This document shows, in pieces, positions 19,045-33,140 of a stretch of DNA of 36,619 nt. The position numbers and the translations under genes were made by a program. Source of the stretch: a virus; the IMG/VR virus record IMGVR_UViG_3300044769_000068, positions 1 through 36,619 of that record; one strand, given 5' to 3'. Position 1 is the stretch's first letter, and every line of letters begins with the position of its first letter. The notes under the pieces are model-generated. The model did not search any database, had not been told where the DNA came from, and saw only the letters and a program-made list of their open reading frames with translations.

Positions 19045-19046
19045 CA

Positions 19047-19122: not shown

Positions 19123-19125
19123 CAT

Positions 19126-19200: not shown

Positions 19201-19203
19201 ATT

Positions 19204-19277
19204 GCTCCGGTAGTATAACGGTTTATTATAGCCGGCTCTTACCCGGTCAGATCGGGGTTCAAATCCTCGTCGGAGCA
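19204..19277 (+). tRNA. tRNA-Lys(CTT)
   Basis: GCCGG-ctCTTac-CCGGT. Confidence 0.9.
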
Positions 19278-19280
19278 CAT

Positions 19281-19352
19281 GTCCTTTTAGTGAAATGGAT
19301 CTCACGCAATGTTCCTACCGTTGAATTGTAGGTTCGATTCCTACAAAGGACA
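19281..19352 (+). tRNA. tRNA-Arg(CCT)
   Basis: CAATG-ttCCTac-CGTTG. Confidence 0.88.
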
Positions 19353-19431
19353 CATATAAGATAGCGCTGGGGTAAGGCTGACCACCCCAGTCCGGTTAGC
19401 TGGTCACTAATTGGACTCCTGGCGCTTATAA

Positions 19432-19628
19432 TAGTCAATCGAGCCATCGCACTACGGTGAGGAAGCTCAGGACATCCCGGAGACCTGTGGGAGGCTAAAG
19501 CCGTCTAACCACTGATACGAAAGCGGGATGCAACGCAAACAGGTCTAGATAAGTCTCGTTCTAAGGACCGGGTTGCGGCCAATAGAGAAATGATGGCATA
19601 AAACAGAATCCTGGCTACTGATTGATTA
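19432..19628 (+). ncRNA. rnpB: Miniature RNase P RNA (type A-like catalytic domain, vestigial S domain)
   Basis: P1 TAGTCAATCG/TGATTGATTA; P2 GCCATC/GATGGC; P3 CAC-TACG-GTG; CR-I GAGGAAGCTCAGGA pairing with CR-V ACAGAATCCTGGCTA (P4); P5 CATCCCG/CGGGATG; P6 GAGAC/GTCTC; P15 with GGT; AGAGAAATGA CR-IV. Confidence 0.85.
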
Positions 19629-19631
19629 CAT

Positions 19632-19704
19632 GCCCTCTTAGTGAAACGGATAATCACGTTGCGCTTCGAACGCAAAGATAGGGGTTCGAATCCTCTAGAG
19701 GGTG
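19632..19704 (+). tRNA. tRNA-Arg(TCG)
   Basis: TTGCG-ctTCGaa-CGCAA. Confidence 0.9.
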
Positions 19705-19709
19705 CATAC

Positions 19710-19785
19710 GGTCGGATAGGATAAGTTGTCCAGTCTAGCAAGTACACCTAGATGGGAGCAGGCTAACGCTCTGCAATGACCACCA
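19710..19785 (+). ncRNA. tRNA-like RNA with 9-nt anticodon loop and encoded CCA
   Basis: GGTCG/TGACC-ACCA; GGATA/TGTCC; TCTAG-caagtacac-CTAGA; GCAGG-ctaacgc-TCTGC. Confidence 0.55.
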
Positions 19786-19788
19786 AAT

Positions 19789-19859
19789 GGGTTGTTCGTC
19801 TAATGGTAAGACAAGTGCCTCCAAAACACTTTATGTGGGTTCGATTCCTACACTTCCCG
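19789..19859 (+). tRNA. tRNA-Trp(CCA)
   Basis: ctCCAaa loop; two U-U mismatches in the acceptor stem. Confidence 0.85.
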
Positions 19860-19870
19860 CAGGAGATAAA

Positions 19871-20458
19871 ATGAGTATTAAAAGCTATTTCACCTGGGCT
19901 CCAAAGTTACCTAAGAAACCCGTGTATGATATGGATGAGGTGATGGAATCTTTTGAGTATCGTAAAGAGACTACATTTGAGAATCACTATTTGAATGTCT
20001 ATTACTGGTTTAAGAGAAACTTTGATTTTCTCTGGACACCAGCCATCGCAAAGGGCTACATAAAGCGCGCATGTCAGATTATCGTTCGTGGATGGAGCGA
20101 TAGAGATATCTGGTCATTAGATTGGACTATCGCTAAGTTTGCTCTACCTAGACTGATCAGACTCAAAGAAGTAATGCACGGTGTTCCCAACTCGATGTTT
20201 GAACCGCTTCCAGAAGGTGAGCATAATCATGATAAAGAGCAAATGGCGGCAGCCGAAAAGAAGTGGAACGAAACGCTTGATGAAATCATTTTTGCTATGG
20301 ACTATATTGCTAATTGTCGTGAGCACGATTATTACCCCAAGAAAAAATGGCCAGAAAAAACCGTTAGAGAAGACTACGTAGAGCTTAGAGCCGTAGAGGA
20401 AAGAGTTCAAAAAGGTTTAGCGTTGTTTGGAACCCACTTCAGAAGTTTGTGGGATTAA
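19871..20458 (+). CDS. Hypothetical phage protein
   Basis: SD AGGAG; start revised to lie downstream of tRNA-Trp. Confidence 0.8.
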   Translation: MSIKSYFTWAPKLPKKPVYDMDEVMESFEYRKETTFENHYLNVYYWFKRNFDFLWTPAIAKGYIKRACQIIVRGWSDRDIWSLDWTIAKFALPRLIRLKEVMHGVPNSMFEPLPEGEHNHDKEQMAAAEKKWNETLDEIIFAMDYIANCREHDYYPKKKWPEKTVREDYVELRAVEERVQKGLALFGTHFRSLWD

Positions 20459-20459
20459 T

Positions 20460-20533
20460 GCCTCGACTAACTCAAATGGTTAGAGTGCGAGTCTGAAAAG
20501 CTCGAAATTCCGGTTCGATTCCGGGGCGAGGCG
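20460..20533 (+). tRNA. tRNA-Phe(GAA)
   Basis: CGAGT-ctGAAaa-GCTCG. Confidence 0.88.
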
Positions 20534-20537
20534 CATT

Positions 20538-20608
20538 GCCGGCGTAGCTCAAAAGTAGAGCAATCGGCTGATAACCGATCGACGGAGGGGCAGTACCTCT
20601 CGACGGCA
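20538..20608 (+). tRNA. tRNA-Ile(GAT), T loop GGCAGTA
   Basis: ATCGG-ctGATaa-CCGAT. Confidence 0.85.
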
Positions 20609-20615
20609 CATTTGT

Positions 20616-20644
20616 TGTACAGCCGCTACAGCTTATGATATAAT
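20616..20644 (+). promoter_or_regulatory. Phage promoter
   Basis: TGTACA-N17-TATAAT. Confidence 0.8.
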
Positions 20645-20671
20645 GTATTCATAAATAATCGAGGTGAGTGC

Positions 20672-21037
20672 ATGTTAGAACTTTTATTCTTTCTAGTCTT
20701 TACGCACTTCGTAATGGATTTTTGCATGCAATCGGATTTTATGTCAAAGTATAAAGGCAAGCTTCCGTTTGTGATGTTTGTGCATGTATTTGTCTGGACG
20801 TTTGCGGTTTGTTGGATGGCAACTTATTTCGGAGCTTTGTCTTGGTGGGCTCCAATTTTCTTGTTTGTGGGACACTGGGCTTGCGATCAATATAAGATTC
20901 ATTTGATCGAAAAAGAAAACTTGAAGGATGAAGCTAATCCGGACGTGCTATCCAGATTAAAGTTCTTGTTTCATGCTGATCAAGTTTGGCATTTAGTTCA
21001 GCTTTTAATTGTAGCAACACTTGGGGTCTTAGTTTAA
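20672..21037 (+). CDS. DUF3307-like membrane protein
   Basis: HFVMDF..Q...K, H...H, HW..D, DQ.WH; hydrophobic segments. Confidence 0.7.
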   Translation: MLELLFFLVFTHFVMDFCMQSDFMSKYKGKLPFVMFVHVFVWTFAVCWMATYFGALSWWAPIFLFVGHWACDQYKIHLIEKENLKDEANPDVLSRLKFLFHADQVWHLVQLLIVATLGVLV

Positions 21038-21093
21038 TGGGAAAACTCTCGGCTTGCACCCGAATGATAAGGGTTCGATTCCCTTAGGCTCCA
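21023..21093 (+). tRNA. tRNA-Ala(TGC)
   Basis: G3:U70; ctTGCac loop. Confidence 0.88.
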
Positions 21094-21183
21094 CATGGGA
21101 GGGTGGCGAGACAGCACTCTCATTCGCCGGCCAGTCTGCAGCTCGGACCGGGATACGAATGCTTGAGCCACCCAACCAGCCAC

Positions 21184-21251
21184 ATTCTGTTAGTTTAATA
21201 AAACGCCTTCTCGTAGAGAAGGAGATGCTGGTAGATGGCCGGCACAGAATA
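21184..21251 (+). ncRNA. Degenerate tRNA-like RNA (GTA at anticodon position)
   Basis: ATTCTGT/ACAGAAT; GTTT-aata-AAAC; CCTTC-tcGTAga-GAAGG; GCTGG-tagatgg-CCGGC. Confidence 0.6.
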
Positions 21252-21323
21252 ATTTTAAACTCAAGGAGGATGTACACATGATAGAGAGTATCTAGTCTGG
21301 CTAGCCAGACATAGGAGGCTATC

Positions 21324-21455
21324 ATGGGTTACTATCCTCATCGAGATAGAACCGCCAAGAACTACGGGGAAATGGGATCCAACCCCAACCGCAAGCGTCG
21401 TGGCAAGAAACGCGGAATGAAGGCTGGCAAGCAGAAGAAAGCTCGTCGAGCCTAA
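21324..21455 (+). CDS. Small highly basic protein (43 aa; not in ORF track)
   Basis: SD AGGAGG; MGYYPHRDRTAKNYGEMGSNPNRKRRGKKRGMKAGKQKKARRA. Confidence 0.7.
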   Translation: MGYYPHRDRTAKNYGEMGSNPNRKRRGKKRGMKAGKQKKARRA

Positions 21456-21536
21456 CAAAAATTTGTCAAAGGCTCAGGACGCTGAGAAATGGGCAAATAG
21501 TGTGGAGTCCCAGGCACTATAAATACTGGGTCATTT

Positions 21537-21608
21537 GGGGCTATAGCTCAGAGGGAGAGCGTTCCGGTGGCATCGGAAAGGCCAAGGGTTCAATCCCCTT
21601 TAGCTCCA
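21537..21608 (+). tRNA. tRNA-Ala(GGC)
   Basis: G3:U70; TTCCG-gtGGCat-CGGAA. Confidence 0.9.
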
Positions 21609-21609
21609 C

Positions 21610-21691
21610 ATTCGGTTCGTCTAATTTAAGGACGCTCTCTACTTTCTGGAAACAGGGGAGGGAAACGCTGGTAAAACAGCACCGAATACCA
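21610..21691 (+). ncRNA. Anticodon-less tRNA-like RNA with encoded CCA
   Basis: ATTCGGT/ACCGAAT-ACCA; D arm; long arm capped by CTG-GAAA-CAG; GCTG-gtaaaa-CAGC. Confidence 0.65.
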
Positions 21692-21694
21692 TAT

Positions 21695-21765
21695 TCCCTT
21701 ATCCTTCAACGGCAGGAGAGGTGACTGTTAATCACTCAATCGAGGTTCGAATCCTCGTAGGGGAG
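21695..21765 (+). tRNA. tRNA-Asn(GTT)
   Basis: GGTGA-ctGTTaa-TCACT. Confidence 0.9.
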
Positions 21766-21787
21766 CATTTCAACAAGGAGGTCTTAT

Positions 21788-22042
21788 ATGCAATGCACAA
21801 ATTGTCATGCTGATATTGGTGCTTGGCTGTTGAAATATAGAGTTATGCCCAAAGTTCGGCTTGATGAAATGTACTTTAAAGAAGAAAAGCTTGTTGCAAA
21901 AATGGACGAATCTGGCATTTATATTGACGGCCAGAAGTTTTACGAACACGAATCTAAAAGATGCCACGAACGATGCCCAAAATGTGGCGCAAAAAATACT
22001 GTAAGAGTAGAGTACGACGAAGTTACTTGGGCGCCCATCTAA
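21788..22042 (+). CDS. Hypothetical Zn-ribbon protein
   Basis: SD AGGAGG; CTNC...CPKC. Confidence 0.7.
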   Translation: MQCTNCHADIGAWLLKYRVMPKVRLDEMYFKEEKLVAKMDESGIYIDGQKFYEHESKRCHERCPKCGAKNTVRVEYDEVTWAPI

Positions 22043-22043
22043 T

Positions 22044-22115
22044 GCGGGTGTAATTCATCGGTAGAATACCTGGTTGCCAACCAGAATGCGGTGGGTTCGA
22101 TTCCCATCACCCGCT
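22044..22115 (+). tRNA. tRNA-Gly(GCC)
   Basis: ttGCCaa loop, U73. Confidence 0.9.
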
Positions 22116-22186
22116 CAATACAATCCCGGGCTTGATATGTAATCAGCCGGCGTCGCGCTGACAAGAATCAAGGTAGTCAGAAGCAA

Positions 22187-22257
22187 GGTTCCTTATGTTA
22201 ATGGTAGACGGTCTCCGTGACATGGAGAAGACAGAAGTTCGATTCTTCTAGGAACCA
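22187..22257 (+). tRNA. tRNA-Val(GAC)
   Basis: TCTCC-gtGACat-GGAGA. Confidence 0.88.
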
Positions 22258-22260
22258 ATT

Positions 22261-22333
22261 GGCCTTGTAGACCAACGGCAGAGTCAACAGTCTGAGAGGC
22301 TGTGCAGTGTGGGTTCGAATCCCACTAGGGCCA
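22261..22333 (+). tRNA. tRNA-Leu(GAG), short variable loop
   Basis: ACAGT-ctGAGag-GCTGT. Confidence 0.88.
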
Positions 22334-22334
22334 C

Positions 22335-22586
22335 ATGCAGAAATCAGAGAACAAAATAAAGCCGATGTACTTTTGGTCAGATGGCTATAAAGAATTCGGC
22401 ATACTAGAACCCGATCACAAGAAAATAAAAGAAGATGAATTAGTAGATGCTAACGAAGAGGAAAGCGAATTTATTTTTGAACCAACAATAAAAATCTCCA
22501 ATAGACAGACTAAGCGAAGGAAACTCAGAAATTTTCTTAAAAGTGAAGTACAAAAAGCGCTTCGGTACGCAAGATTTTATCGCTAA
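22335..22586 (+). CDS. Hypothetical protein
   Basis: ORF between tRNAs. Confidence 0.5.
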   Translation: MQKSENKIKPMYFWSDGYKEFGILEPDHKKIKEDELVDANEEESEFIFEPTIKISNRQTKRRKLRNFLKSEVQKALRYARFYR

Positions 22587-22599
22587 AAGGAGGTCGCGC

Positions 22600-22821
22600 A
22601 TGAGATTCAAAAAGACAACCTGGTACAACATGAAGACCGACAGTGCGAATTATGGCATCAAGATTAAGTATGCAAATCTCAAGTTCTTGGACGTAGCTGA
22701 AAACGGAAAGCCTCTCATTTTTGAAACAGAACTAGAACGGGATGAAAAAATTAAGCAGATAAAGAGAGACAGCAAAGCAAAAGACTTTGAATCAAGAATG
22801 AAGTTTGTCAGAGCGATATAG
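22600..22821 (+). CDS. Hypothetical protein
   Basis: SD AGGAGG before MRFKK. Confidence 0.65.
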   Translation: MRFKKTTWYNMKTDSANYGIKIKYANLKFLDVAENGKPLIFETELERDEKIKQIKRDSKAKDFESRMKFVRAI

Positions 22822-22824
22822 AAC

Positions 22825-22897
22825 GGCCTCGTACCCCAACGGCAGAGGGAACACGTTTAGACCGTGTACAGTGTCGGTTCGAATCCGACCGGGGCTA
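22825..22897 (+). tRNA. tRNA-Leu(TAG), short variable loop
   Basis: ACACG-ttTAGac-CGTGT. Confidence 0.88.
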
Positions 22898-22904
22898 ATG
22901 ATTT

Positions 22905-22981
22905 GCCCGCTTAGGTTAAAACAAGCAAACCGGCGGTTTTGTACATCGCTAATACCGCTGCAAACGCGGTAGCGGGCTCCA
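22905..22981 (+). tRNA. Atypical tRNA-Thr(TGT) with encoded CCA
   Basis: GCCCGCT/AGCGGGC-TCCA; GCGGT-ttTGTac-ATCGC; T loop TGCAAAC; D loop lacks GG. Confidence 0.7.
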
Positions 22982-22987
22982 GCAAAC

Positions 22988-23058
22988 GCACTCATAGTTC
23001 AATGGCAGAACAACTGTTTCGTAAGCAGTAGATCTCGATCCGATTCCGAGTGGGTGCT
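22988..23058 (+). tRNA. tRNA-Thr(CGT)
   Basis: ACTGT-ttCGTaa-GCAGT; T loop TCCGATT. Confidence 0.82.
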
Positions 23059-23156
23059 CATGAAAAAGAATAAACAAAATAAACAGCGGATGTTTTATTG
23101 GCAAGTTTCTAAGAAGAATGGTAAAATCTTTATATGCAAGCTTATAGAGATTAAAC

Positions 23157-23837
23157 ATGAAGAATAGAACAGAAGTAAAGTATGTGATTAAGCTTTATGA
23201 AGCGCAATGGGACAGACACCATAACGAATCGGTCAAGCCATTTTTTGAGCAGCTTCAGAGAGAATGTTTTGACGATGGTGATGGCCACGATCCGCTATTT
23301 TCATATTACGTATTCCAGACGGCAGAAGGAATCGAGGCAGCGCTTAATTACAAGCTCGACGTTGGATTAGATGGCCGGCTAAAGATAGGGTATTTTGGAG
23401 TGCACGGTCAGACAGACCAGATTCAAGCGCTTAAGCCCATCAATAGGATGAAGCTTAGAAATATTTTAATTAAGACGACCAACTTCGACGGGCTGTATTT
23501 CGGTACGTGCGACTTTGCTAATAGAAAAACAGCAGAACTATTGCTGAATAACATATCCACACTCAAGTGGGTCGCTGGCTTTTCTAAGTGGACGCCGTGG
23601 TTGGAAGGTACGATTTGTGATATACTGTTCTTTAGGCTGTTGTTGTCAGGTCGTTTCAGAAGGCCGTCCCATACAAACACCAAGTGGGACATAATGACTA
23701 AGCCAGAGGACGCTGCTAGACACTTGTATGAAATTTATCCAATGGCTGTTGATTTAAAGTTCTCGCTGTTTTATAGAGGGTCTAGCGGCATTAATTCAAC
23801 GTATGATGACTGGACAAATAGGATAATGGCATTATGA
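23157..23837 (+). CDS. Hypothetical protein, possible caspase/CHAT-like fold (DUF6642-like)
   Basis: YFGVHG...LYFGTC...VAGFSK..W: His-Gly and Cys spacing. Confidence 0.5.
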   Translation: MKNRTEVKYVIKLYEAQWDRHHNESVKPFFEQLQRECFDDGDGHDPLFSYYVFQTAEGIEAALNYKLDVGLDGRLKIGYFGVHGQTDQIQALKPINRMKLRNILIKTTNFDGLYFGTCDFANRKTAELLLNNISTLKWVAGFSKWTPWLEGTICDILFFRLLLSGRFRRPSHTNTKWDIMTKPEDAARHLYEIYPMAVDLKFSLFYRGSSGINSTYDDWTNRIMAL

Positions 23838-24070
23838 TAAAATACCTCGTAATCTTTTTTGCATTAGTTCTTACCGACATTGTATGGGCTCTCTACATTA
23901 GATGGGCTGCAAGTGGTAAAGCAATGAAAGCGGGACTTTCGTCTATTCTCATTTATGTCATAGGCGCTTTTACATTCGGTGAGTTCATTAAAGATACGTG
24001 GGTTTTGATTCCTGCCGGATTAGGCTGTTTTGTGGGAACTTACGCAACGATAAAATGGCTAGACAAGTAG
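23834..24070 (+). CDS. Small membrane protein
   Basis: Three hydrophobic segments. Confidence 0.7.
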   Translation: MIKYLVIFFALVLTDIVWALYIRWAASGKAMKAGLSSILIYVIGAFTFGEFIKDTWVLIPAGLGCFVGTYATIKWLDK

Positions 24071-24141
24071 GGTCGTGTAGCTCAATAGTAGAGCAGTCGC
24101 CTTATAAGCGACCGACGAAGGGGCAGAACCTTCTACGACCA
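24071..24141 (+). tRNA. tRNA-Ile(TAT), T loop GGCAGAA
   Basis: GTCGC-ctTATaa-GCGAC. Confidence 0.82.
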
Positions 24142-24159
24142 ATCGACAAGAGGTGAAAA

Positions 24160-24849
24160 ATGTGTAAGCCAGGACATTTATGGATAAACGATCTCAAAAT
24201 TGATACGATAATAGATGTCGGCGCCAATGTTGGTGACTTTTCAAAAGAAATGCGGAAATATAGACCAGAGGCTCTTATCTATGCCTTTGAGCCCTTGCCA
24301 TATGAATACGACGCACTAATTACAGCTTTCAAATACGATAAGCGGTTCAAATCCTTTAATTTAGCTTTATCGGATAAGGAAGCAGTCGTTCCGTTTAACG
24401 TAACAAGTTTTGGCCCTGCAAGTTCTATATTGCAGATGAACGACACTCTAATCGATTATATTAATAATGGGTTTAAGACGAACGTAACTGCATCGCCAAT
24501 TCTTGTTCAAGCAGTTACATTGGACTCAATTTTTGCCGATAGCATTTTGGGTCCATCCCTTTTAGTAAAGATAGACACTCAGGGATTTGAAGACAAAGTA
24601 ATAAAAGGTGGCGAGAAAACTATTCGTAGAGCAAAAGTGTGCTTTCTTGAAACAGAGTTTCAGCCGCTATACAAAGGACAAGCTTTATTTATAGACATAT
24701 TGAATCAAATGGACGCGCTTGGCTTTACTTATTTTGGCGATAAGGATTACGTTTCATATCACCTGACTAATGGTACGGCGCTTTGGCAAGATAGTATTTT
24801 CGTGAACAAAAGTCTCTTGAAGGACGGTGTTTATCAAGGGCTCTCGTAG
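24160..24849 (+). CDS. FkbM-family SAM-dependent methyltransferase
   Basis: IIDVGANVG, YAFEP, ALSD, TLD, KIDTQGFE..VIKGG. Confidence 0.9.
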   Translation: MCKPGHLWINDLKIDTIIDVGANVGDFSKEMRKYRPEALIYAFEPLPYEYDALITAFKYDKRFKSFNLALSDKEAVVPFNVTSFGPASSILQMNDTLIDYINNGFKTNVTASPILVQAVTLDSIFADSILGPSLLVKIDTQGFEDKVIKGGEKTIRRAKVCFLETEFQPLYKGQALFIDILNQMDALGFTYFGDKDYVSYHLTNGTALWQDSIFVNKSLLKDGVYQGLS

Positions 24850-24912
24850 GCCAACGGCAGAGTCAGCAGGCTTAAACCCTGTACAGTGTCAGTTCGAATC
24901 TGACCGGGAGCA
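24840..24912 (+). tRNA. tRNA-Leu(TAA), short variable loop
   Basis: GCAGG-ctTAAac-CCTGT. Confidence 0.88.
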
Positions 24913-24915
24913 CAT

Positions 24916-24987
<72 letters not shown>

Positions 24988-24995
24988 CATTTTGA

Positions 24996-25024
24996 TGTAC
25001 AATCAAATGCATTTGTGGTATAGT
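24996..25024 (+). promoter_or_regulatory. Phage promoter
   Basis: TGTACA-N17-TATAGT. Confidence 0.75.
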
Positions 25025-25080
25025 AGTTATATCAATTGAAAGGAGCCAAAATCCAACGATGGGAAGGAAGACCCACCGCG

Positions 25081-25596
25081 ATGAAAAAGATATTAATAAT
25101 CACGATTATAGCATGTACGGCTTTGTTCGCATCCATGTTTACAAGACCGGATCAGAGATTGTTGCTTACGCTGGATTCGGTGAATCACCCGGATGTGATA
25201 CAAGTAGAAAAGATGATAGACAAGACGGGAGCAGATGTCCCGGCAGTTACAAAAAAGAAAGTGGCCCTTGCTATAGCAGAACATGCTAAATACTATGGAA
25301 TAAAACCAAAGAATTTAGTTGCTATAGCATTTGTTGAGTCAAAATTTCAACCAACCCTTATCAATAGTACAGGCGACCATGGATTGATGCAGATCAATTG
25401 GCCGACTTGGAAGAACAGATTCACAAGAGATCCAAAAGATCTTCTTAACGTCTACAAGAATGTAGAAGTTGCATGCAAAATTATCAATATAAACAAAAGC
25501 ATGGGACAGACTGACTTGGCCGATTATCATTCTTTTAATGATGAACCAAAAGCCATTTATCAGGCTAAATTAAGAGAAGTTCTGAGGAGGCTCTAA
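25081..25596 (+). CDS. Lytic transglycosylase (SLT domain) with N-terminal signal/anchor
   Basis: AIAFVESKF, GLMQIN, NV..AC.I motifs. Confidence 0.85.
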   Translation: MKKILIITIIACTALFASMFTRPDQRLLLTLDSVNHPDVIQVEKMIDKTGADVPAVTKKKVALAIAEHAKYYGIKPKNLVAIAFVESKFQPTLINSTGDHGLMQINWPTWKNRFTRDPKDLLNVYKNVEVACKIININKSMGQTDLADYHSFNDEPKAIYQAKLREVLRRL

Positions 25597-25934
25597 TGTC
25601 TAATACGCTCGACGCTGTAAAGGCAACACTGACGAGAGAGAGAACTGCGCTAGACAAAGAATTGAAGCAGCCTTGGTACGACACATTTGTTTGTGGTGCG
25701 CTTGTCTGCGGGATTGCCGTGGCCATCGTAATCATGTTTTTAGACACGAAGAAATACGCTATTCAAGAGAGAATGACGAGAATGCATATAGAAGCTGTAA
25801 CAGCTACAGATAAAAATTGTAATGATTGTCATTTGGGCGCTTCTTTTGTTAATTTATTCAACCACCCAATGGTGAAAGCTGATGATAATGTCATTACTCT
25901 CATGATGGATAAGGCTAAGATAAAGCGATGGTAA
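25596..25934 (+). CDS. Membrane protein with CxxCH motif
   Basis: TM helix then CNDCH. Confidence 0.6.
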   Translation: MSNTLDAVKATLTRERTALDKELKQPWYDTFVCGALVCGIAVAIVIMFLDTKKYAIQERMTRMHIEAVTATDKNCNDCHLGASFVNLFNHPMVKADDNVITLMMDKAKIKRW

Positions 25935-26052
25935 AAGAATACAAAGAAAAAGAATTTTTTAATTGCGAGTTTTGCCGTTGCAGAACTAATGCAAATCTTC
26001 GTAGATGCTGTGAATTGGGCTACGAGGCTGATTTAAGAAAGAGTAAGAAATT

Positions 26053-26140
26053 AGCGGGTGAATCGGCGGATGTGCAGATACCAGCCTCATAAGCTGGGAG
26101 ACAAAATCTCTAGCCTGTTTAACTCAGGTACCCGCTACCA
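26053..26140 (+). tRNA. CAT-anticodon tRNA with long variable arm and encoded CCA
   Basis: AGCGGGT/ACCCGCT-ACCA; CCAGC-ctCATaa-GCTGG; V arm GAGA-caaaa-TCTC; T loop TTTAACT. Confidence 0.7.
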
Positions 26141-26214
26141 ATAAGCAGTTTCCCTTGCTAAGTGCCGGGGAGTAAAACGAGAGGGTGATAACGCTCCTCT
26201 TGTTCCTGCACAAC

Positions 26215-26286
26215 GGCTTACGAATAAGTATTCAGCTGCGGCTCATAACTGCGGCCTACTCGGGGCGGTACCGAGGTAAGCCACCA
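26215..26286 (+). tRNA. CAT-anticodon tRNA with tRNA-Pyl-like compact architecture
   Basis: GGCTTAC|GAAT-aagt-ATTC|a|GCTGCGG-ctCATaa-CTGCGGC|cta|CTCGG-ggcggta-CCGAG|GTAAGCC-ACCA. Confidence 0.7.
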
Positions 26287-26291
26287 CAAAT

Positions 26292-26362
26292 TGACCTATG
26301 GTGAAACAGTATCACGGTTGGCTTTGAACCAGCAGTCCGAGGGGCGGCACCTCGTGGGTCAG
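26292..26362 (+). tRNA. tRNA-Gln(TTG), T loop GGCGGCA
   Basis: GTTGG-ctTTGaa-CCAGC; U1:A72, G73. Confidence 0.82.
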
Positions 26363-26369
26363 CATACAT

Positions 26370-26440
26370 TGGCACATCGTTCAACGGTAGGACAAACGGC
26401 TCTGACCCGTTCAATCGAGGTTCAAATCCTTGTGTGCCAG
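26370..26440 (+). tRNA. tRNA-Gln(CTG)
   Basis: AACGG-ctCTGac-CCGTT. Confidence 0.9.
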
Positions 26441-26588
26441 CATAAGAAAGCCTGTGGTCATAGAACTCATCAGCCAAGAGCTGAAGGAGATGGGCTAGCC
26501 CTAGTGCGTTAGTCTTGATTTTAGATTGGTGCCAGGTGATGGAATACTGGCTCAAATACCGTTATACCCAGACGGAGCCAATCTTTAC

Positions 26589-26672
26589 GGTAAGGGTCCG
26601 GCATGGACGAGGACACCGGCTTGAACCCGGCTGGCTGTAAAAGGCTCAGGAGTTCGATTCTCCTCCTTATCG
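26589..26672 (+). tRNA. tRNA-Ser(TGA)
   Basis: ctTGAac loop, long V arm, G73. Confidence 0.85.
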
Positions 26673-26768
26673 CACGTGCAAGACAGGAAAAGTCTAAGGA
26701 AATCGCCAACGCCTTAGAGGACTGAGTAATCAACGCAGGGTGGCTCCGGTTGATTCGTCTTGCCGTTT

Positions 26769-26859
26769 GGTGGAATACTCTAGTCTGGTAAGAGGCAGTC
26801 TTGGAAAGGCTGTGCACACGGTGAGAGCCGTTACGTAGGTTCGAACCCTACTTCCACCG
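26769..26859 (+). tRNA. tRNA-Ser(GGA)
   Basis: CAGTC-ttGGAaa-GGCTG, long V arm. Confidence 0.9.
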
Positions 26860-26877
26860 CATAAAAAGGAGAAATGC

Positions 26878-27048
26878 ATGGATGCTGACTTAATTAAAAG
26901 GGTCGTTTCATTATGTGTTGAAGGTCTTACAACAGACGGCGGTCATCACAAACAGTGGTATTTAGAGCAGATTCTTAGATCGATTTCTGGGGCTCGTTAT
27001 CATGAATTTAAACGAGAACATGAATGGGAAAAGGGAATAGCACCATAA
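26878..27048 (+). CDS. Small phage hypothetical protein (56 aa; not in ORF track)
   Basis: SD AGGAG; DGGHHKQWYLEQI...WEKGIAP. Confidence 0.75.
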   Translation: MDADLIKRVVSLCVEGLTTDGGHHKQWYLEQILRSISGARYHEFKREHEWEKGIAP

Positions 27049-27049
27049 C

Positions 27050-27081
27050 GGTAGGGATCCGGCTGGATGAGAAATAGTCTT
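27050..27081 (+). pseudogene. 5' half-remnant of a tRNA-Ser-like gene
   Basis: GGTAGGGATCCGGCTGGATGAG resembles the 5' end of tRNA-Ser(TGA) at 26589. Confidence 0.45.
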
Positions 27082-27168
27082 GGTAAGATGCTAGAGTCTG
27101 GCTAATTAGCTCCGTTTCGAAAGCGGATGGGTGTAAAAGCCACGTGAGTTCGAATCTCACTCTTACCC
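27082..27168 (+). tRNA. tRNA-Ser(CGA)
   Basis: TCCGT-ttCGAaa-GCGGA, long V arm. Confidence 0.88.
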
Positions 27169-27226
27169 ATAAGTAGCAAAAAGCCTCGAACTCTTCCTAA
27201 TTTAGAACATTAGGAGGAAAGAAATC

Positions 27227-27871
27227 ATGTATAAATTCGTAGTCTATAAAACAATAAATCGTATCAATAATCGTTATTATGTTGGTGTTCACAGAACCAA
27301 AGACATAAACGATAGATACTTGGGTTCTGGCATTCTTTTAAAGGTTGCAATCAAGAAGTATGGTAAAGAGAACTTCACAAAAGAGATCCTTGCAATCTTC
27401 GATTCTTATGAAGAAGCTTTCAATAAAGAACGAGAAATTGTTACTCTTGAATTAATAGAAAAGGGCGAATGCTATAACCTTCATTGCGGTGGCGATGGAA
27501 ATTGGGATAGCATCAACTACGGAAAGTTAAAATATCTTCATCCCTCGTCTAATTGGGCTGTCGCAGATAAAAAGATTAAAGAAAGAATGACAAAGGGCGG
27601 TCTAAAGGGATTTAAGCACGCAAGAGAAATTAAATCTCAGATGATAAAAGACGGCCTACTTAAAAATGATTCTTTTAAAGGCAAAAGACATTCAGACGAG
27701 TTTAAGCAAAGATTATCGATTATAATGAAAGAAAAACAATGCGGAGAAAACAATTCACAATACGGGACTTGTTGGATTCATAATGATTCACAGAGCAAGA
27801 AAGTACGAAAAGAAGAGTTGGATGGTTTTATAGAAAGTGGTTGGAAAAAGGGTAGAGTACTCAAGTGGTAA
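27227..27871 (+). mobile_element. Free-standing GIY-YIG homing endonuclease (Seg-like, NUMOD3-type motif)
   Basis: VVYKTIN..N.RYYVGVH...YLGSG...E; FKGKRHSDEFK; AT-rich. Confidence 0.85.
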
Positions 27872-27935
27872 AGAGGGGAGTTTGCTAAACTCTTAGGGTG
27901 TAAAAGCCGCGCAGGTTCGAATCCTGCCTCTATCG
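27851..27935 (+). tRNA. tRNA-Ser(GCT)
   Basis: GGAGT-ttGCTaa-ACTCT, long V arm. Confidence 0.9.
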
Positions 27936-27938
27936 CAC

Positions 27939-28010
27939 GTCCTTGTAGGCTAATGGATAAACCGAATGGCTACGAACCATTCATTGTGAGTTCGAATCTC
28001 GCCGAGGACA
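27939..28010 (+). tRNA. tRNA-Arg(ACG)
   Basis: AATGG-ctACGaa-CCATT. Confidence 0.9.
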
Positions 28011-28011
28011 C

Positions 28012-28191
28012 ATGAAATATTTATACTGGATAAATATCCACTACGCATGTTATGGTATAATAGTACATGACGGCGTAGTAATCGAGGCACCGCCGATTGC
28101 TAAGTGGGCCATTGGTAAGACCTTCGATGATTTCAAGAAGTTCGTCAAGAAAAAAAACGGCCAGATAAAAGGTAAGCATCTGCCGGGTTAG
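28012..28191 (+). CDS. Small phage hypothetical protein (59 aa; not in ORF track)
   Basis: MKYLYWINIHYACYGIIVHDGVVIEAPPIAKWAIGK... Confidence 0.65.
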   Translation: MKYLYWINIHYACYGIIVHDGVVIEAPPIAKWAIGKTFDDFKKFVKKKNGQIKGKHLPG

Positions 28192-28252
28192 TCTAATGGT
28201 AAGACGCCTCTTTGGTAAGGAGGAAACACGAGTCCGATTCTCGTACTTGGCT
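28182..28252 (+). tRNA. tRNA-Thr(GGT)
   Basis: CCTCT-ttGGTaa-GGAGG. Confidence 0.85.
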
Positions 28253-28255
28253 CAT

Positions 28256-28328
28256 GGCTCTTTGGGTGAATGGTTATAGCCAGCTGCCTGCAAAGCAGTG
28301 AAAACTGGTTCAATTCCAGTAAGAGCCT
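28256..28328 (+). tRNA. tRNA-Cys(GCA)
   Basis: GCTGC-ctGCAaa-GCAGT, U73. Confidence 0.9.
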
Positions 28329-28335
28329 CATTTGT

Positions 28336-28364
28336 TGTACAACCGCTGTAATTTATGATATAAT
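28336..28364 (+). promoter_or_regulatory. Phage promoter
   Basis: TGTACA-N17-TATAAT. Confidence 0.8.
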
Positions 28365-28417
28365 GGATTCAAATGGAACAAGGTGATTGTTCCACTTACA
28401 ACAGGGAGGAGATCCCA

Positions 28418-29488
28418 ATGCGAAAATACCAATACGCCGTATTCATTGGCCGGTTCCAGCCACTCCACAATGGACACTTAGAAAACATCCAAAATGCGTT
28501 GAAGATTGCTGACAAGGTTCTTATACTTGTCGGCTCTGCTTTCGCCGCCCGCAACATCCGAAATCCCTTTACATTTGAAGAGCGTAAACGAATGATTCTC
28601 AATTCTTTCGGCTTTAATAGTTGGCGTGACGATCCGCCAAAAGACGAAGAAGGTGTAGTCATATTCAATCGTTTGCTTATTAAACCCGTTAGAGACTTCC
28701 TCTACAACGATCAAGATTGGATCGCTGAAGTACAAGGCGTTGTTAACGAGGAGATCGATCAATTCGATGAGGACGTCAAAGTGGTGCTTGTGGGAATGAA
28801 GAAGGACGATACTACGTTCTATCTTGATATGTTTCCACAGTGGAATTTTGTGGCAACTAATGAGGTTGTAAGCCACGCCGCCACAATTATTAGGGACAAG
28901 TATTTCACTTATGAAATTGATTATCGATTTCTTGATTGCCCTGATCCCGTAAAAGCATTTCTACAGGACTTTAGGCAGACAGAAGATTATATCCATCTTT
29001 CAGATGAGCACTCTTTTGTCAAGAAATATAGAGAGTCTTTCAGCGCTCTTCCGTATCCGCCGACGTTTGTTACAACTGATGCAGTAGTCCTTTGTAACGG
29101 ACACGTGCTGCTTGTCAAACGAAAGGCTAACCCTGGAAAAGGGTTGTGGGCGCTCCCTGGCGGCTTCATCAAACACGACGAGAGGATTGACGATTGTACG
29201 ATTAGAGAGCTTAAAGAAGAGACACGGATCGAGGTTCACAAGAATGTGATTAAAGGGTCTTTTGTGACGTCCAACGTTTTTGACGCTCCAAACAGATCAT
29301 TGAGAGGTCGTACGATTACACACGCTTCGTTATATGTTCTTAGGCAGATTGCTTTGCCTAAGGTGAAGGGAAGCGACGATGCTGAAAAGGCTAAATGGTT
29401 TCCATACGTAGAGTTCTATGACATGGAAGACAAGCTTTATGAAGATCATTTCCACATTGTAAAGCACTTTATTGGATTGGCCCGATAA
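28418..29488 (+). CDS. nadM: Bifunctional NMN adenylyltransferase / ADP-ribose pyrophosphatase (NadM-Nudix)
   Basis: FIGRFQPLHNGH, NPFTFEER; Nudix box GGF...E....CTIRELKEET. Confidence 0.92.
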   Translation: MRKYQYAVFIGRFQPLHNGHLENIQNALKIADKVLILVGSAFAARNIRNPFTFEERKRMILNSFGFNSWRDDPPKDEEGVVIFNRLLIKPVRDFLYNDQDWIAEVQGVVNEEIDQFDEDVKVVLVGMKKDDTTFYLDMFPQWNFVATNEVVSHAATIIRDKYFTYEIDYRFLDCPDPVKAFLQDFRQTEDYIHLSDEHSFVKKYRESFSALPYPPTFVTTDAVVLCNGHVLLVKRKANPGKGLWALPGGFIKHDERIDDCTIRELKEETRIEVHKNVIKGSFVTSNVFDAPNRSLRGRTITHASLYVLRQIALPKVKGSDDAEKAKWFPYVEFYDMEDKLYEDHFHIVKHFIGLAR

Positions 29489-29524
29489 CCGCGGAGAGCG
29501 GTTGGGACAGGAAGGAGATTCCAA

Positions 29525-30901
29525 ATGGATAACATGATTCTTATGACCGACAGCTACAAGGCAAGCCACTGGAAGCAGTATCCGCCAGGTACGACTGATG
29601 TTTATTCTTACATTGAGGCACGGGGTGGGGACTTTCCAGAGACAGTGTTTTTCGGATTACAAATGATTCTTAAGAAGTTCTTTGTCAGGCCGATCACTCA
29701 GGAGATGATTGATGAGGCTGATGAGTTCTTCAAGATACACGGAGAGCCTTTTAACAAGGAAGGGTGGGAGTACATCCTCAAGAAGCATAATGGTTATCTT
29801 CCTCTACGAATCATGGCCGTTCCAGAAGGACGGAGAGTAAACCTCAAGAATATTCTGGTGTCTGTTGAAAATACAGATCCAGAATGCTATTGGCTTACTT
29901 CTTACATCGAGACAGTTCTTATGAGGGCTGTCTGGTATCCGACAACTGTGGCAACCAATTCTTACCGGGCTAAGCGGCTGATCTACGATTTCCTCAAGGC
30001 AACATGCGATGACCCTGATGGGCAGATCATGTTCAGACTTCACGACTTTGGCGGTCGTGGCGTTTCTTCAGGCGAATCGGCTGAGATTGGAGGCGCAGCC
30101 CACTTAGTGAACTTCATGGGTTCTGATACAGTAGAGGGAATTTGGGCTGCCAACAAGTACTACAATGCTGGGATGGCTGGATTTTCTATTCCTGCAGCTG
30201 AGCACAGCACGATTTGTGTTTGGGGCCGAGGAAATGAAGCTGACGCTTATAGAAATATGGTGAATGCTTATGGCGGCCCTGGCAAGATTTATGCTTGTGT
30301 CTCGGATAGCTATGATATTTATAACGCCGCTGACAATATCTGGGGAAAACAACTGAAAGACCTTGTTCTGAAAACGGGTGGTACGTTAGTAGTAAGACCT
30401 GATAGTGGTCATCCGCCTACGGTAGTAGCCCGACTGCTGCAAATCCTTGGCGATCGGTTTGGTTGCACTGTCAATGGAAAAGGCTTTAAAGTATTGAATC
30501 CAGCGATCCGTGTCATCCAAGGCGATGGTTGTACTCTCCAGATGATCAACGAGATTCTTCATGCAATGTGGAAGAATCAGTGGTCTGCAGAGAATGTCGC
30601 TTTCGGAATGGGTGGCGGTCTCTTGCAGAAACTTGACCGCGATACTTTCAAGTTTGCTATGAAGGCATCGTACGCAAAAGTGAATGGCAAAGAGATCCTT
30701 GTCTACAAGGAGCCGATTACTGACGAGGTTAAAATCTCGAAGAAGGGCAAGCTGGCTCTTGTAGAAACAATGGATGGATACGAAACCGTCATGCAAGGCA
30801 CTAAATGGTACGATCGGGACGTCCTTGAAGAAGTATTCCTGAACGGCAAGATTACCAAGGAATACACGTTTGAGGAAGTCAGAAAGAACGTGGCATATTA
30901 A
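29525..30901 (+). CDS. nadV: Nicotinamide phosphoribosyltransferase (NAMPT)
   Basis: TDSYKASHW.QYPP, LHDFGGRG, SIPAAEHS, VSDSYD, VRPDSG, VIQGDG, FGMGGGLLQ. Confidence 0.95.
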   Translation: MDNMILMTDSYKASHWKQYPPGTTDVYSYIEARGGDFPETVFFGLQMILKKFFVRPITQEMIDEADEFFKIHGEPFNKEGWEYILKKHNGYLPLRIMAVPEGRRVNLKNILVSVENTDPECYWLTSYIETVLMRAVWYPTTVATNSYRAKRLIYDFLKATCDDPDGQIMFRLHDFGGRGVSSGESAEIGGAAHLVNFMGSDTVEGIWAANKYYNAGMAGFSIPAAEHSTICVWGRGNEADAYRNMVNAYGGPGKIYACVSDSYDIYNAADNIWGKQLKDLVLKTGGTLVVRPDSGHPPTVVARLLQILGDRFGCTVNGKGFKVLNPAIRVIQGDGCTLQMINEILHAMWKNQWSAENVAFGMGGGLLQKLDRDTFKFAMKASYAKVNGKEILVYKEPITDEVKISKKGKLALVETMDGYETVMQGTKWYDRDVLEEVFLNGKITKEYTFEEVRKNVAY

Positions 30902-30902
30902 T

Positions 30903-31691
30903 ATGAAAGTAATAAATCATAGAGAATTTGCCAATGGGCAAGTCTTTGCATTGAAGCTTTACGACGGGATGCTGATTGAAACGACCGATACGTTCCTTCC
31001 GTTCTATACGAAGGATGCGGCATCTCAGCACGATAATGCTCTTCATAGCAAATACTGGGTGGGCGACCGGTCAGAAAGATGGATGATTGGTGTTTCCACA
31101 ATGTCTGGATGTCCTGTGAAATGCAAGTTTTGTGCCGCGGGTAAGCTAAAACAGTGGAGAAACTTGACGGCCGAAGAGATAGTCAATCAGATTCTCTTCG
31201 TACGAGAACAGAATCACAACAACGATCCTCGGTATTGTAAAGAGTTCAAGGTAAACTACACAAGAATGGGAGAGCCCTTTCTGAACATCTTTGAGGTACA
31301 AAAGGCAATAAGTATGATTAGCCGGATGCACCCTAGTGCTCACCATTATGTGTCGACGATTGGGCTAAAAGGGTCCGACTTCTCATGGATAAAGGACAAC
31401 ATTACGTTACAGATTTCCCTCCATTCGTTGGACGAGGAAAGGCGGAAGTGGCTTATACCAATAAACAACCTGATGACTCTAGAGGAGCTGGGAGCTATCA
31501 GAACGGGTAGTCATTTGAAAACTACAATCAACTTGACACTTGTGGACGAAAAAGACTTTGACATCAAGAAACTCCGCAAATACTTCGATCCCAAGTACTT
31601 CTTCATCAAGCTGTCTCCGATCAATGAGAATGAGATCAGCAAAGGAAATGACTTAGGCAAGGGCGTCATTGAACAACTCAATCTTGTCTAG
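30903..31691 (+). CDS. RlmN/Cfr-like radical SAM protein lacking the C-terminal catalytic Cys segment
   Basis: VSTMSGCPVKCKFCA, RNLTAEEIVNQI, MGEPFLN, VSTIG, LQISLHS...R.WLIP. Confidence 0.85.
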   Translation: MKVINHREFANGQVFALKLYDGMLIETTDTFLPFYTKDAASQHDNALHSKYWVGDRSERWMIGVSTMSGCPVKCKFCAAGKLKQWRNLTAEEIVNQILFVREQNHNNDPRYCKEFKVNYTRMGEPFLNIFEVQKAISMISRMHPSAHHYVSTIGLKGSDFSWIKDNITLQISLHSLDEERRKWLIPINNLMTLEELGAIRTGSHLKTTINLTLVDEKDFDIKKLRKYFDPKYFFIKLSPINENEISKGNDLGKGVIEQLNLV

Positions 31692-31704
31692 AAGGGAGGA
31701 CCAA

Positions 31705-31827
31705 ATGGAAACTATTAAGAAGCAGTTGGCTGAAGAAGGCTATGAGTTTGCGGTCGCTGTCGCAACTCAGGCTGAGATTGAGGCTGGGGCGGCTTGTGGG
31801 CAGTTGTCAATTATTTCTGAAGAATAA
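31705..31827 (+). CDS. 40-aa peptide corresponding to the RlmN/Cfr C-terminus (AACGQL; not in ORF track)
   Basis: Own SD GGGAGG; METIKKQLAEEGYEFAVAVATQAEIEAGAACGQLSIISEE. Confidence 0.85.
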   Translation: METIKKQLAEEGYEFAVAVATQAEIEAGAACGQLSIISEE

Positions 31828-31830
31828 CGA

Positions 31831-31860
31831 TGTACAATTGTGGCAGAAGTATGATATAAT
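31831..31860 (+). promoter_or_regulatory. Phage promoter
   Basis: TGTACA-N18-TATAAT. Confidence 0.7.
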
Positions 31861-32170
31861 GTACTTACAATGGCGGATAGGAGAGATTTTAGTGATCCTG
31901 AGTCCGTCCGGGTGGGCTCCCGTAACTACCAGAACAGCCCATGAGCGCAGTACAGAGAAGTACAGGTTTGGCCGTTCCTGTTAAAAACGGCCAGCCATTA
32001 CGTTTCCTCGTTAGAACACCATAATTTAGTACTTACCGATGTTGCATGGGAGGTTGAAATATGCATACTGTAAGAGAAGCAGTTAGAAAAATTATCGATG
32101 AGTTGCGTGCTCAGATCGAGGCTTCTAAAAAGAAACTCGTGAAAAGGGCTACTCGAAAGAAGTAAGCTGT

Positions 32171-32241
32171 GCCCTTGTAGCTTAATGGAAAAGCAGCGGT
32201 TTTGTAAACCGCCGATGTTGGTTCGATTCCGACCTGGGGCT
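32171..32241 (+). tRNA. tRNA-Thr(TGT)
   Basis: GCGGT-ttTGTaa-ACCGC. Confidence 0.9.
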
Positions 32242-32263
32242 CACCAAATAAAAAGGAGTACGT

Positions 32264-32455
32264 ATGGCTAAAAAGAAAAGTCCGATGACAAAGAGACCGA
32301 GCACGCTGGTCGTAGCACCGGGATGTGAAGCTTGCAGCAAAGTGTGCAAATACAACGGCCCTGTTGCTGATCCTTTTATGGCGGCAGAGTGGAAACGAGA
32401 AGAGCCCTACGGTTGTAATTCAAAACTTACGGGCTTTGGACTAGAAGGAGTATGA
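32264..32455 (+). CDS. Hypothetical protein
   Basis: SD AGGAG. Confidence 0.6.
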   Translation: MAKKKSPMTKRPSTLVVAPGCEACSKVCKYNGPVADPFMAAEWKREEPYGCNSKLTGFGLEGV

Positions 32456-32627
32456 AATGGACGCGCAGAAGATTAAGGAAATTCAGGGATTAATAACTAG
32501 ACATCAAAAAGCAGTTCTGCCTCAGCCGCCACGTCCTGCAGGTCATAATCGTCAGGATGAAGATTTAAATAAGGTGGCAGCCAATGATATTATTGGAAAG
32601 GGTGGAGAGTCAGATCTCCGCAAATAA

Positions 32628-32963
32628 ATGAAAATTGAAATAGACGTCGATCCGTCTAAAAAAGAAATTGTAATTAAAGATGGCGCAGGAAACGAACGCT
32701 ATGTAAAAAGCATCGTCATTTGCGGAGGCGACGCCACAGCTGGGAAGTTTTATTTATTTGGATGGGGCTCTTCTGCAGATGGCGGCTGGGCGTTAGCTCA
32801 TTCGCTAAAGGCTACGGAAGATCCTTTTTACAAGAGGTTGTTCGATCACTTCTTTAGATGGCTGGGAATCAATAACGGGATGGCTATTGTTGGAGAAGAG
32901 CCTGAAGCTATTTTAAAGAGGTGGGAGGCAGAAGACAAGAAAAACACTCCGACGTACAATTAA
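32628..32963 (+). CDS. Hypothetical protein
   Basis: ORF in operon context. Confidence 0.65.
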   Translation: MKIEIDVDPSKKEIVIKDGAGNERYVKSIVICGGDATAGKFYLFGWGSSADGGWALAHSLKATEDPFYKRLFDHFFRWLGINNGMAIVGEEPEAILKRWEAEDKKNTPTYN

Positions 32964-32968
32964 CAAAC

Positions 32969-33041
32969 GCCCTTGTAGGCTAAGTGGATAAACCATCAGG
33001 TTTCTACCCTGAGTTTGGGGGTTCGAGTCCTCCCAAGGGCG
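32969..33041 (+). tRNA. tRNA-Arg(TCT)
   Basis: TCAGG-ttTCTac-CCTGA. Confidence 0.9.
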
Positions 33042-33044
33042 CAT

Positions 33045-33118
33045 GGCTTCGTAGGCCAATTGGCAGAGTCAGCAGGCTCAAACCCTGTTCAGTGTCAGTT
33101 CGAATCTGACCGGAGCCA
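33045..33118 (+). tRNA. tRNA-Leu(CAA), short variable loop
   Basis: GCAGG-ctCAAac-CCTGT. Confidence 0.88.
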
Positions 33119-33140
33119 CATCATACAAAAGGAGACGCAT

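Follow-up and report, generated by a model that had tools for sequence, protein, structure and literature searches.

A conserved, ultra-compact tRNA gene with anticodon CAU, probably an elongator tRNA-Met, is paired with an initiator-type gene in a phage tRNA array

The window, the whole stretch of DNA analysed here (36,619 nucleotides), makes up the first 36.6 kb of an IMG/VR viral contig of 116 kb, with an estimated completeness of about 71%. Genes for a tail sheath, a portal and a T4-type terminase mark the phage as a myovirus type. Its best matches among cultured phages show 25–28% identity for TerL and 26–37% for the sheath and come from phages of varied hosts; at these levels (TerL at most 28%) no close relative was found among cultured phages, and Bacillus phages occur among the sheath matches only weakly. 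The phage is uncultured. Between 15.9 and 33.1 kb the + strand carries an array of about 40 tRNA genes with small ORFs in between (33 called by ARAGORN, up to 38 by Rfam), in which all amino acids are represented; no tRNA gene lies on the rest of the 116-kb contig, itself about 71% complete. The array includes a tRNA-Ile(UAU) (24071–24141, + strand), a decoder for AUA, and a gene for an SLT-domain protein (25036–25596) lies 600 bp upstream of the gene that is the subject of this study, hereafter the compact gene. A related phage, G001 (111 kb), has 38 tRNAs and the same arrangement of the compact gene, its initiator-type companion (gene A, below) and the tRNA-Ile(UAU). The 116-kb contig (about 71% complete) encodes no MetRS, TilS, PylRS/PheRS-type core (PF01409-type class II), EF-Tu, CCA-adding enzyme or formyltransferase.

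Several other elements of the array depart from the usual form. At 21610–21691, 21184–21251 and 19710–19785 (all + strand) lie tRNA-like elements with good acceptor stems and no normal anticodon loop, one of which has a long helix with a GAAA cap and another a 3-nt loop on a stem of 7 bp. The element at 26589–26671 (+ strand), probably a tRNA-Ser(UGA) whose variable arm is long, is missed by ARAGORN and gives a weak match, at 25 bits, to the Rfam tRNA-Sec model. A second tRNA-Pro(UGG)-like gene (16356–16432, + strand), found by Rfam and not by ARAGORN in bacterial mode, has the anticodon loop CCUGGAA, which places C rather than U at position 33. In another related phage, L154 (G004:C1), a tRNA with the anticodon CTA, of the amber suppressor type, lies at complement 9182–9256 and adjoins two tRNA-Gln genes; TAG could be read as Gln in that lineage. 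Finally, 19431–19633 (+ strand), between two tRNA-Arg genes, matches Rfam RNaseP_bact_a at 52.3 bits (gathering score 100; E 1e-13) over the entire model in just 203 nt, and may be a miniature phage RNase P RNA; Rfam finds no RNase P match in the tRNA array of G001.

The compact gene occupies 26215–26286 (+ strand), 72 nt including CCA. The 5' strand of its acceptor stem (GGCTTAC, 26215–26221) forms seven Watson–Crick pairs with the 3' strand (GTAAGCC, 26276–26282), and the 3' part of the gene (26276–26286) ends in the discriminator A (26283) and CCA (26284–26286). The D arm (26222–26233), with a 4-bp stem GAAT/ATTC and a 4-nt loop AAGT that has no GG, follows directly on the acceptor stem, positions 8 and 9 (the acceptor/D connector) being absent. 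A single unpaired A (26234), invariant in 15 of 15 family sequences, separates the D stem from the anticodon arm (26235–26255), which consists of a 7-bp stem GCTGCGG/CTGCGGC and a 7-nt loop CTCATAA with the anticodon CAT at 26244–26246. The variable loop CTA (26256–26258) has three nucleotides, invariant in length and free in sequence, and the T arm (26259–26275) has a 5-bp stem CTCGG/CCGAG and a non-canonical loop GGCGGTA. All stems are fully paired, with two G–U pairs, both in the anticodon stem. The earlier note had described the fold in these terms (no connector, a 4-nt D loop without GG, a 7-bp anticodon stem, a 3-nt V loop and the T loop GGCGGTA), and exactly so: the unconstrained MFE fold is this same cloverleaf, at −29.6 kcal/mol. 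The stability of the single sequence is modest evidence alone, with z = −3.04 and 2 of 200 shuffles folding as well.

Standard scanners miss the gene, as the same note had anticipated. ARAGORN in bacterial mode does not report it even at -ps40, and Rfam RF00005 gives no match at E ≤ 10 in a 1.9-kb search, below the gathering threshold of 29 bits; the neighbouring tRNAs score 40–63 bits with the Rfam tRNA model. Only the mitochondrial modes of ARAGORN, -mt and -mtmam, call an mtRNA-Met(cat), at exactly 26215–26286; this call is weak evidence alone, because the mitochondrial mode gives about eight matches per shuffled contig. The same background rate, and a single-sequence z of only −3.0, would be in keeping with a chance cluster of hairpins or a decaying tRNA pseudogene. 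It is the covariation among homologues that refutes this reading and is decisive for judging the gene real.

Homologues were sought independently of the tRNA, with the neighbouring SLT-domain protein as the query. This search gave six viral loci at 55–78% amino acid identity, and the compact gene, with the same 69-nt architecture, is present in all five of those with sufficient downstream DNA. The resulting set of six sequences is unbiased, the tRNA sequence having played no part in the search; 99.3% of its cells pair, compared with 21–41% for slid partners, and double compensatory changes affect 10 of the 23 pairs. The family grew to 15 distinct aligned sequences when viral and metagenome contigs were scanned with patterns. 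The search pattern let the two halves vary by 12 and 10 nt; despite these wide ranges every sequence has 68 nt plus A73 and an identical architecture. Across the 15, 98.8% of cells pair (24–42% with slid partners), compensatory double changes are found at 11 of 23 pairs, none of 500 shuffles equals the observed score, and RNAalifold independently gives the same cloverleaf. Many of the 15 were retrieved with patterns that fixed acceptor positions 1–6 and 63–68 and the anticodon loop, so that the invariance of these columns is informative in the unbiased six only. In these six, acceptor pairs 1–6 are invariant and pair 7:66 covaries (CG, AU, UA), and the anticodon loop CUCAUAA, with U33 and a purine at 37, is invariant.

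Double compensatory changes affect three of the four pairs in the D stem (AU/UA/GC, AU/GC and CG/UA) and five of the seven in the anticodon stem, among which the outer pairs 21:41 and 22:40 (alignment positions), those that extend the stem from 5 to 7 bp, covary as GC/CG/AU and GC/GU/AU. The V loop takes nine different triplets among the 15 sequences at a constant length. Two T-stem pairs covary and the closing G:C, the equivalent of G53:C61, is invariant, as are A73 and G1:C72 throughout the family. Such a pattern, with a fixed length and double changes in 11 of 23 pairs next to proteins only 55–78% identical, makes a chance or pseudogene origin practically inconceivable. The covarying homologues that the earlier note had proposed to look for are there, at five of five syntenic loci and in 15 sequences, and we judge from them that the compact gene is a real, conserved gene under strong selection for its cloverleaf. 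A broader scan of viral contigs with the pattern CTCATAA-N15-GGCGGTA gave 108 matches, mostly due to chance, of which about six outside the family passed structural filters. The sole match in a scan of genome_contigs (185,579 species) was a canonical tRNA-Met in a Chloroflexota MAG; its likeness is forced by the search pattern and thus gives no clue to the host.

The family loops suggest how the elbow is held. The D loop reads N-A-G-N, with the G at its third position invariant, and the T loop reads N-N-C-R-N-Y-A, where the C, at the position of C56, never varies and 57 is a purine. Judged from this invariance, the elbow is probably held by a pair between the D-loop G and the T-loop C, the equivalent of G19:C56. 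Moreover, T-loop positions 1 and 5 carry the same base in 15 of 15 sequences (GG in eight, AA in six, UU in one), a state matched by 2 of 100,000 permutations, and a 54–58 homo-pair (G-G, A-A or U-U) may take the place of the T54-A58 reverse-Hoogsteen pair. A T loop of the form GGCRGNA together with a D loop without GG recurs in the G001 tRNA-Ile(GAU), in a tRNA-Lys (L031) and in tRNA-like genes of a jumbo phage (G002). Together, the recurrent T loop GGCRGNA and the covarying homo-pair amount to an elbow motif of an alternative kind.

Within the window, three otherwise normal tRNAs on the + strand have the D loop A-AGTA, without GG: tRNA-Ile(GAU) (20538–20608; T loop GGCAGTA), tRNA-Ile(UAU) (24071–24141; GGCAGAA) and tRNA-Gln(UUG) (26292–26362; GGCGGCA). 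A general rule tying deviant elbows to the putative miniature RNase P RNA was considered and is not supported, because G001 has the compact gene, lacks an RNase P match in its array and has a canonical tRNA-Gln(UUG).

The encoded CCA is not a conserved part of the gene. Of 17 distinct family sequences, counted with the 3' tail, only five encode it, the remaining tails reading ACAA, ACAT, AATA or AATG, so that most relatives must use a CCA-adding enzyme; this dependence in turn argues that the elbow is still recognisable. As for the array itself, NCCA is encoded directly after the discriminator at both CAU genes of the window, and most canonical tRNA genes (15943–33119, + strand) read CA(T), not CCA, at this point.

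The second of these CAU genes, gene A, lies at 26053–26140 (+ strand), where it was revealed by a flexible structural scan and rules out the compact gene as the sole CAU gene of the array. Its acceptor stem, AGCGGGT/ACCCGCT (A1:U72, then G2-C3-G4-G5-G6), is accompanied by a T loop TTTAACT, an encoded ACCA, a Sec-like long irregular D arm with a 4-nt loop and a variable arm of 15 nt in this phage and of 3–4 nt in most relatives; it folds as a cloverleaf with z = −3.65. ARAGORN calls it Met(cat) at -ps80; in default mode ARAGORN misses it, as does Rfam. Both CAU genes of the phage are thus overlooked by ARAGORN default and Rfam, and counts of phage tRNAs that rely on standard tools come out too low for Met and fMet.

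The compact gene is preceded by gene A at 20 of 20 loci, in some at a distance of just 2 nt. Across these loci the 1:72 of gene A is A:U, CxA or UxC and never G:C, with G2-C71, C3-G70, G4-C69 and A73 all conserved; in G001 the copy shows C1xA72, and three G:C pairs close its anticodon stem. Formylation of an initiator depends on a 1:72 mismatch or weak pair, G2-C71, C3-G70, G4-C69 and A73 (PMC9976931), and three consecutive G:C pairs closing the anticodon stem are given as an initiator feature in PMC6393288. Gene A has the weak or mismatched 1:72 and the three acceptor pairs and is, in these respects, of initiator type. The compact gene has a fixed slot in the array of about 40 tRNAs, immediately downstream of an initiator-type CAU tRNA. 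The earlier note had treated it alone; it is the downstream half of a conserved pair.

Which tRNA does the compact gene encode? Only two CAU loops closed by at least 5 bp occur in the array, those of the compact gene and of gene A. The compact gene has these sequence features of an elongator tRNA-Met: CAU in a 7-nt loop, U33, a purine at 37, A73 and a Watson–Crick 1:72. Its invariant G1:C72 and the lack of a run of three G:C pairs make it the elongator partner of a conserved fMet/Met pair, and the elongator role is the one left for it, since gene A carries the formylation determinants and AUA is served by tRNA-Ile(UAU). It keeps what MetRS needs, CAU in a canonical loop and A73; for E. coli MetRS, a tRNA-Val body with CAU is as efficient a substrate as tRNA-Met itself (PMC9976931), which makes charging of the compact tRNA by the host MetRS plausible. 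We consider it likely, therefore, that the compact gene encodes a phage elongator tRNA-Met(CAU) with an ultra-compact core that is charged by the host MetRS.

Against this stands the loss of U8, A14, G18 and T54-Psi55-A58, which are normally contacted by many processing and modification enzymes and by the ribosome, and no experiment that we found shows a bacterial ribosome using a tRNA with a 7-bp anticodon stem. A canonical tRNA-Met elsewhere in the genome cannot be strictly excluded, the contig being about 71% complete, but all tRNAs cluster at 15.9–33.1 kb. Moreover, genes of a related type in other phages (L040-type, below) combine the same D arm with initiator-like acceptors, so a compact body does not by itself signify an elongator. 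They also lend some substance to the converse assignment, in which the compact gene would be the initiator and gene A an elongator or have another role: in L040-type genes, whose D arm is identical, the acceptor opens with A1:U72 or C1xA72 and continues with GCGGGG. The compact family, however, has an invariant strong G1:C72 and U:A at 4:69, the pairs next to its anticodon loop are C:G, G-U and G:C with no run of three G:C pairs, and it is gene A that has the weak or mismatched 1:72 with G2-C71, C3-G70 and G4-C69. The converse assignment is accordingly highly improbable.

The earlier note had proposed a structurally orthogonal Met/Ile2 tRNA. That this is a genuine CAU tRNA is borne out; of the two identities Met is favoured over Ile2. 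Orthogonality finds no support: MetRS, TilS, a PylRS/PheRS-type core, EF-Tu and a CCA enzyme are all absent from the 116-kb contig, and the compact gene must use host enzymes. As a tRNA-Ile2, it would acquire lysidine at C34 through the host TilS, be charged by IleRS and read AUA. CAU with A37/A38 and A73 are common to tRNA-Ile2 and tRNA-Met, and the anticodon sequence alone does not separate the two (PMC9976931). An AUA decoder, tRNA-Ile(UAU), is already present at 24071–24141, however, and in G001 as well; no TilS was found on the contig; and an otherwise complete set would be left without an elongator tRNA-Met. In addition, E. coli TilS reportedly uses C4:G69/C5:G68 (Ikeda-type studies), unlike the U4:A69 and U5:A68 of the compact acceptor stem. 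The tRNA-Ile(UAU) of the array and these acceptor pairs make Met much more likely than Ile2, an identity that we regard as improbable.

The compact gene might also not serve translation at all and instead encode a tRNA mimic, acting as a decoy or sponge for a host nuclease directed at tRNA-Met or for another tRNA-binding defence protein, or as processing punctuation. A bacterial Schlafen defence nuclease does cut tRNA-Met(CAU) in the anticodon arm (PMC13056530), the window holds tRNA-like elements without a usable anticodon loop (21610–21691 and 21184–21251), and the deviant core might impair use by the ribosome. A decoy for an anticodon-arm nuclease, however, need not keep an invariant acceptor stem, A73, G53:C61 and a 12-bp acceptor/T stack, nor an exact 7-nt loop with U33 and A37; its altered anticodon stem makes it a poorer, not a better, imitation of the host tRNA, and its constant place beside an initiator-type gene, where elongator Met is otherwise missing from the array, suits a part in translation. 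A mimic is thus quite unlikely, and the decoy for anticodon nucleases put forward in the earlier note leaves the invariant acceptor stem, A73 and the canonical anticodon loop unexplained.

The architecture has precedents. The tRNA-Pyl of Methanomethylophilus alvus lacks the acceptor/D connector; its D loop measures 4 nt, its anticodon stem 6 bp and its V loop 3 nt. The core of the compact gene matches it as reviewed in PMC7609411, in agreement with the tRNA-Pyl-like compact fold first proposed for it. Indeed, the compact gene shows each element of the tRNA-Pyl core (a connector of 0–1 base, a D loop of 4–5 nt, a long anticodon stem and a 3-nt V loop). In contrast, tRNA-Pyl of the M. alvus type has CUA and G73 where the compact gene has CAU and A73 (PMC7609411); the 6-bp anticodon stem of tRNA-Pyl, bulge-broken in M. 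alvus, corresponds to an unbroken 7 bp; and tRNA-Pyl has a dedicated PylRS, whereas no PylRS is encoded on the 116-kb contig (about 71% complete). The compact gene resembles tRNA-Pyl in architecture only and is not a member.

Mammalian mt-tRNA-Ser(UCN), of type I, resembles the compact gene in its reduced connector and small D loop, in the extension of its anticodon stem and in a V loop of 3 nt, and keeps its L shape despite the reduced core (PMC7609411). It differs in having one connector base, a 6-bp stem and the conserved G18G19/T-Psi-C, and in being organellar and serine-specific. With canonical bacterial elongator tRNA-Met the compact gene has in common the loop CUCAUAA, A73, a paired 1:72, G53:C61, the 7-bp acceptor stem and the 5-bp T stem; it lacks the U8/N9, the 7–11 nt D loop with GG and the 5-bp anticodon stem of the canonical molecule, and has a V region of 3 instead of 5 nt and GGCGGUA instead of a T-Psi-C-R-A loop. 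Of the canonical U8/N9, G18G19, 5-bp stem and T-loop features it retains only C56, R57 and G53:C61. The compact gene thus combines the most reduced states of its precedents with a seventh anticodon-stem pair; the phrases "7-bp anticodon stem" and "7 bp anticodon stem" have no occurrence among the roughly 8.4 million papers and preprints searched.

Compact CAU genes are also found outside the family. The family model, R1, detects them in unrelated viral contigs, at 51 bits in L024 and at 36–41 bits in L098, L022, L040 and L010, and two of these genes occupy tRNA slots in the arrays of other phages; a CAU element of a jumbo phage (L087) fits the architecture, is missed by R1 and is a candidate only. 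Blastn of the compact gene, L024, L010 and L022 against cultured phages gave nothing. The L040 gene is about 82% identical to tRNA-Met(cat) genes of the Bacillus subtilis Herelleviridae phages Goe3, BSP38 and 010DV004. L040-type genes share the AAGT D loop and GGCGGTA T loop of the compact gene, and a scan for the exact D arm found more of them in the large phage contigs L163, L164 and L166, with compensatory changes elsewhere and initiator-like acceptors.

The Bacillus-phage genes, from Bastillevirinae such as vB_BsuM-Goe3 (Goe3_c06100; KY368640 32240–32307; L161:1497–1564) and 010DV004 (gene 211; MZ501260; L160:1496–1565), are 68–70 nt long, lie in phage tRNA clusters and are called by ARAGORN in bacterial mode. 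Like the compact gene they have the CTCATAA loop, the D stem GAAT/ATTC, a 4-nt D loop, A73, a shortened acceptor/D junction and an elongated anticodon stem. Unlike it, they have one connector base (none in the compact gene), a 6-bp anticodon stem (7 bp), a 4-nt V loop (3 nt), a D loop UGGU and a T loop TTCGAYT, where the compact gene has neither GG nor T-Psi-C, and an acceptor that starts with U1:A72 rather than G1:C72. Model R1 does not reach these genes; it is through the L040-type genes that the window family is linked to them, and common descent is plausible.

There is a graded series, from the semi-compact Bacillus-phage genes with a canonical elbow, through L040-type genes of the same layout with the AAGT/GGCGGTA elbow, to the window family with no connector, a 7-bp anticodon stem and a 3-nt V loop, and compact bodies occur with initiator-like as well as elongator-like acceptors. 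Semi-compact tRNA-Met genes were thus already annotated in cultured Bacillus phages, and the compact gene is an extreme variant; no paper commenting on the semi-compact form was found in the literature searched.

If the compact gene is an elongator tRNA-Met, its path can be proposed in outline. It would be part of the array's transcript, from which RNase P and 3' processing would release it, with the CCA encoded here and, in most relatives, added by a host enzyme. The host MetRS would charge it through CAU, the canonical CUCAUAA loop and A73; EF-Tu would carry it, as the paired G1:C72 and the intact 12-bp acceptor/T helix suggest; and it would read internal AUG codons. The two extra anticodon-stem pairs would use the normal positions 26/44 and 45 and probably offset the missing connector and the tiny D loop, leaving the distance from anticodon to elbow near normal, as in tRNA-Pyl and mammalian mt-tRNA-Ser(UCN). 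Bacterial Schlafen cleaves tRNA-Met(CAU) at positions 29–32 and 39–41 (PMC13056530). Conceivably, then, the compact core and alternative elbow are an adaptation that helps the Met-tRNA escape host immunity directed at tRNAs, or a purge of host tRNAs that the phage induces, so that anticodon-arm cutters such as Schlafen, or elbow-reading nucleases, would be thwarted and MetRS, EF-Tu and the ribosome would still accept it; we hold this idea to be rather doubtful. Were it true, phages would have reached independently a tRNA-Pyl-like scaffold as a nuclease-proof chassis, with both acceptor types.

On the elongator reading, phages would use the compact architecture for an ordinary amino acid, and bacterial translation probably tolerates a tRNA far more compact than textbooks assume. 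If functional, the compact gene would be a natural example of a 7-bp anticodon stem and, to our knowledge, the most compact cloverleaf tRNA known to work with the bacterial translation apparatus. Because cultured B. subtilis phages carry semi-compact relatives, the question is within reach of experiment, and the compact family offers natural scaffolds for tRNA engineering.
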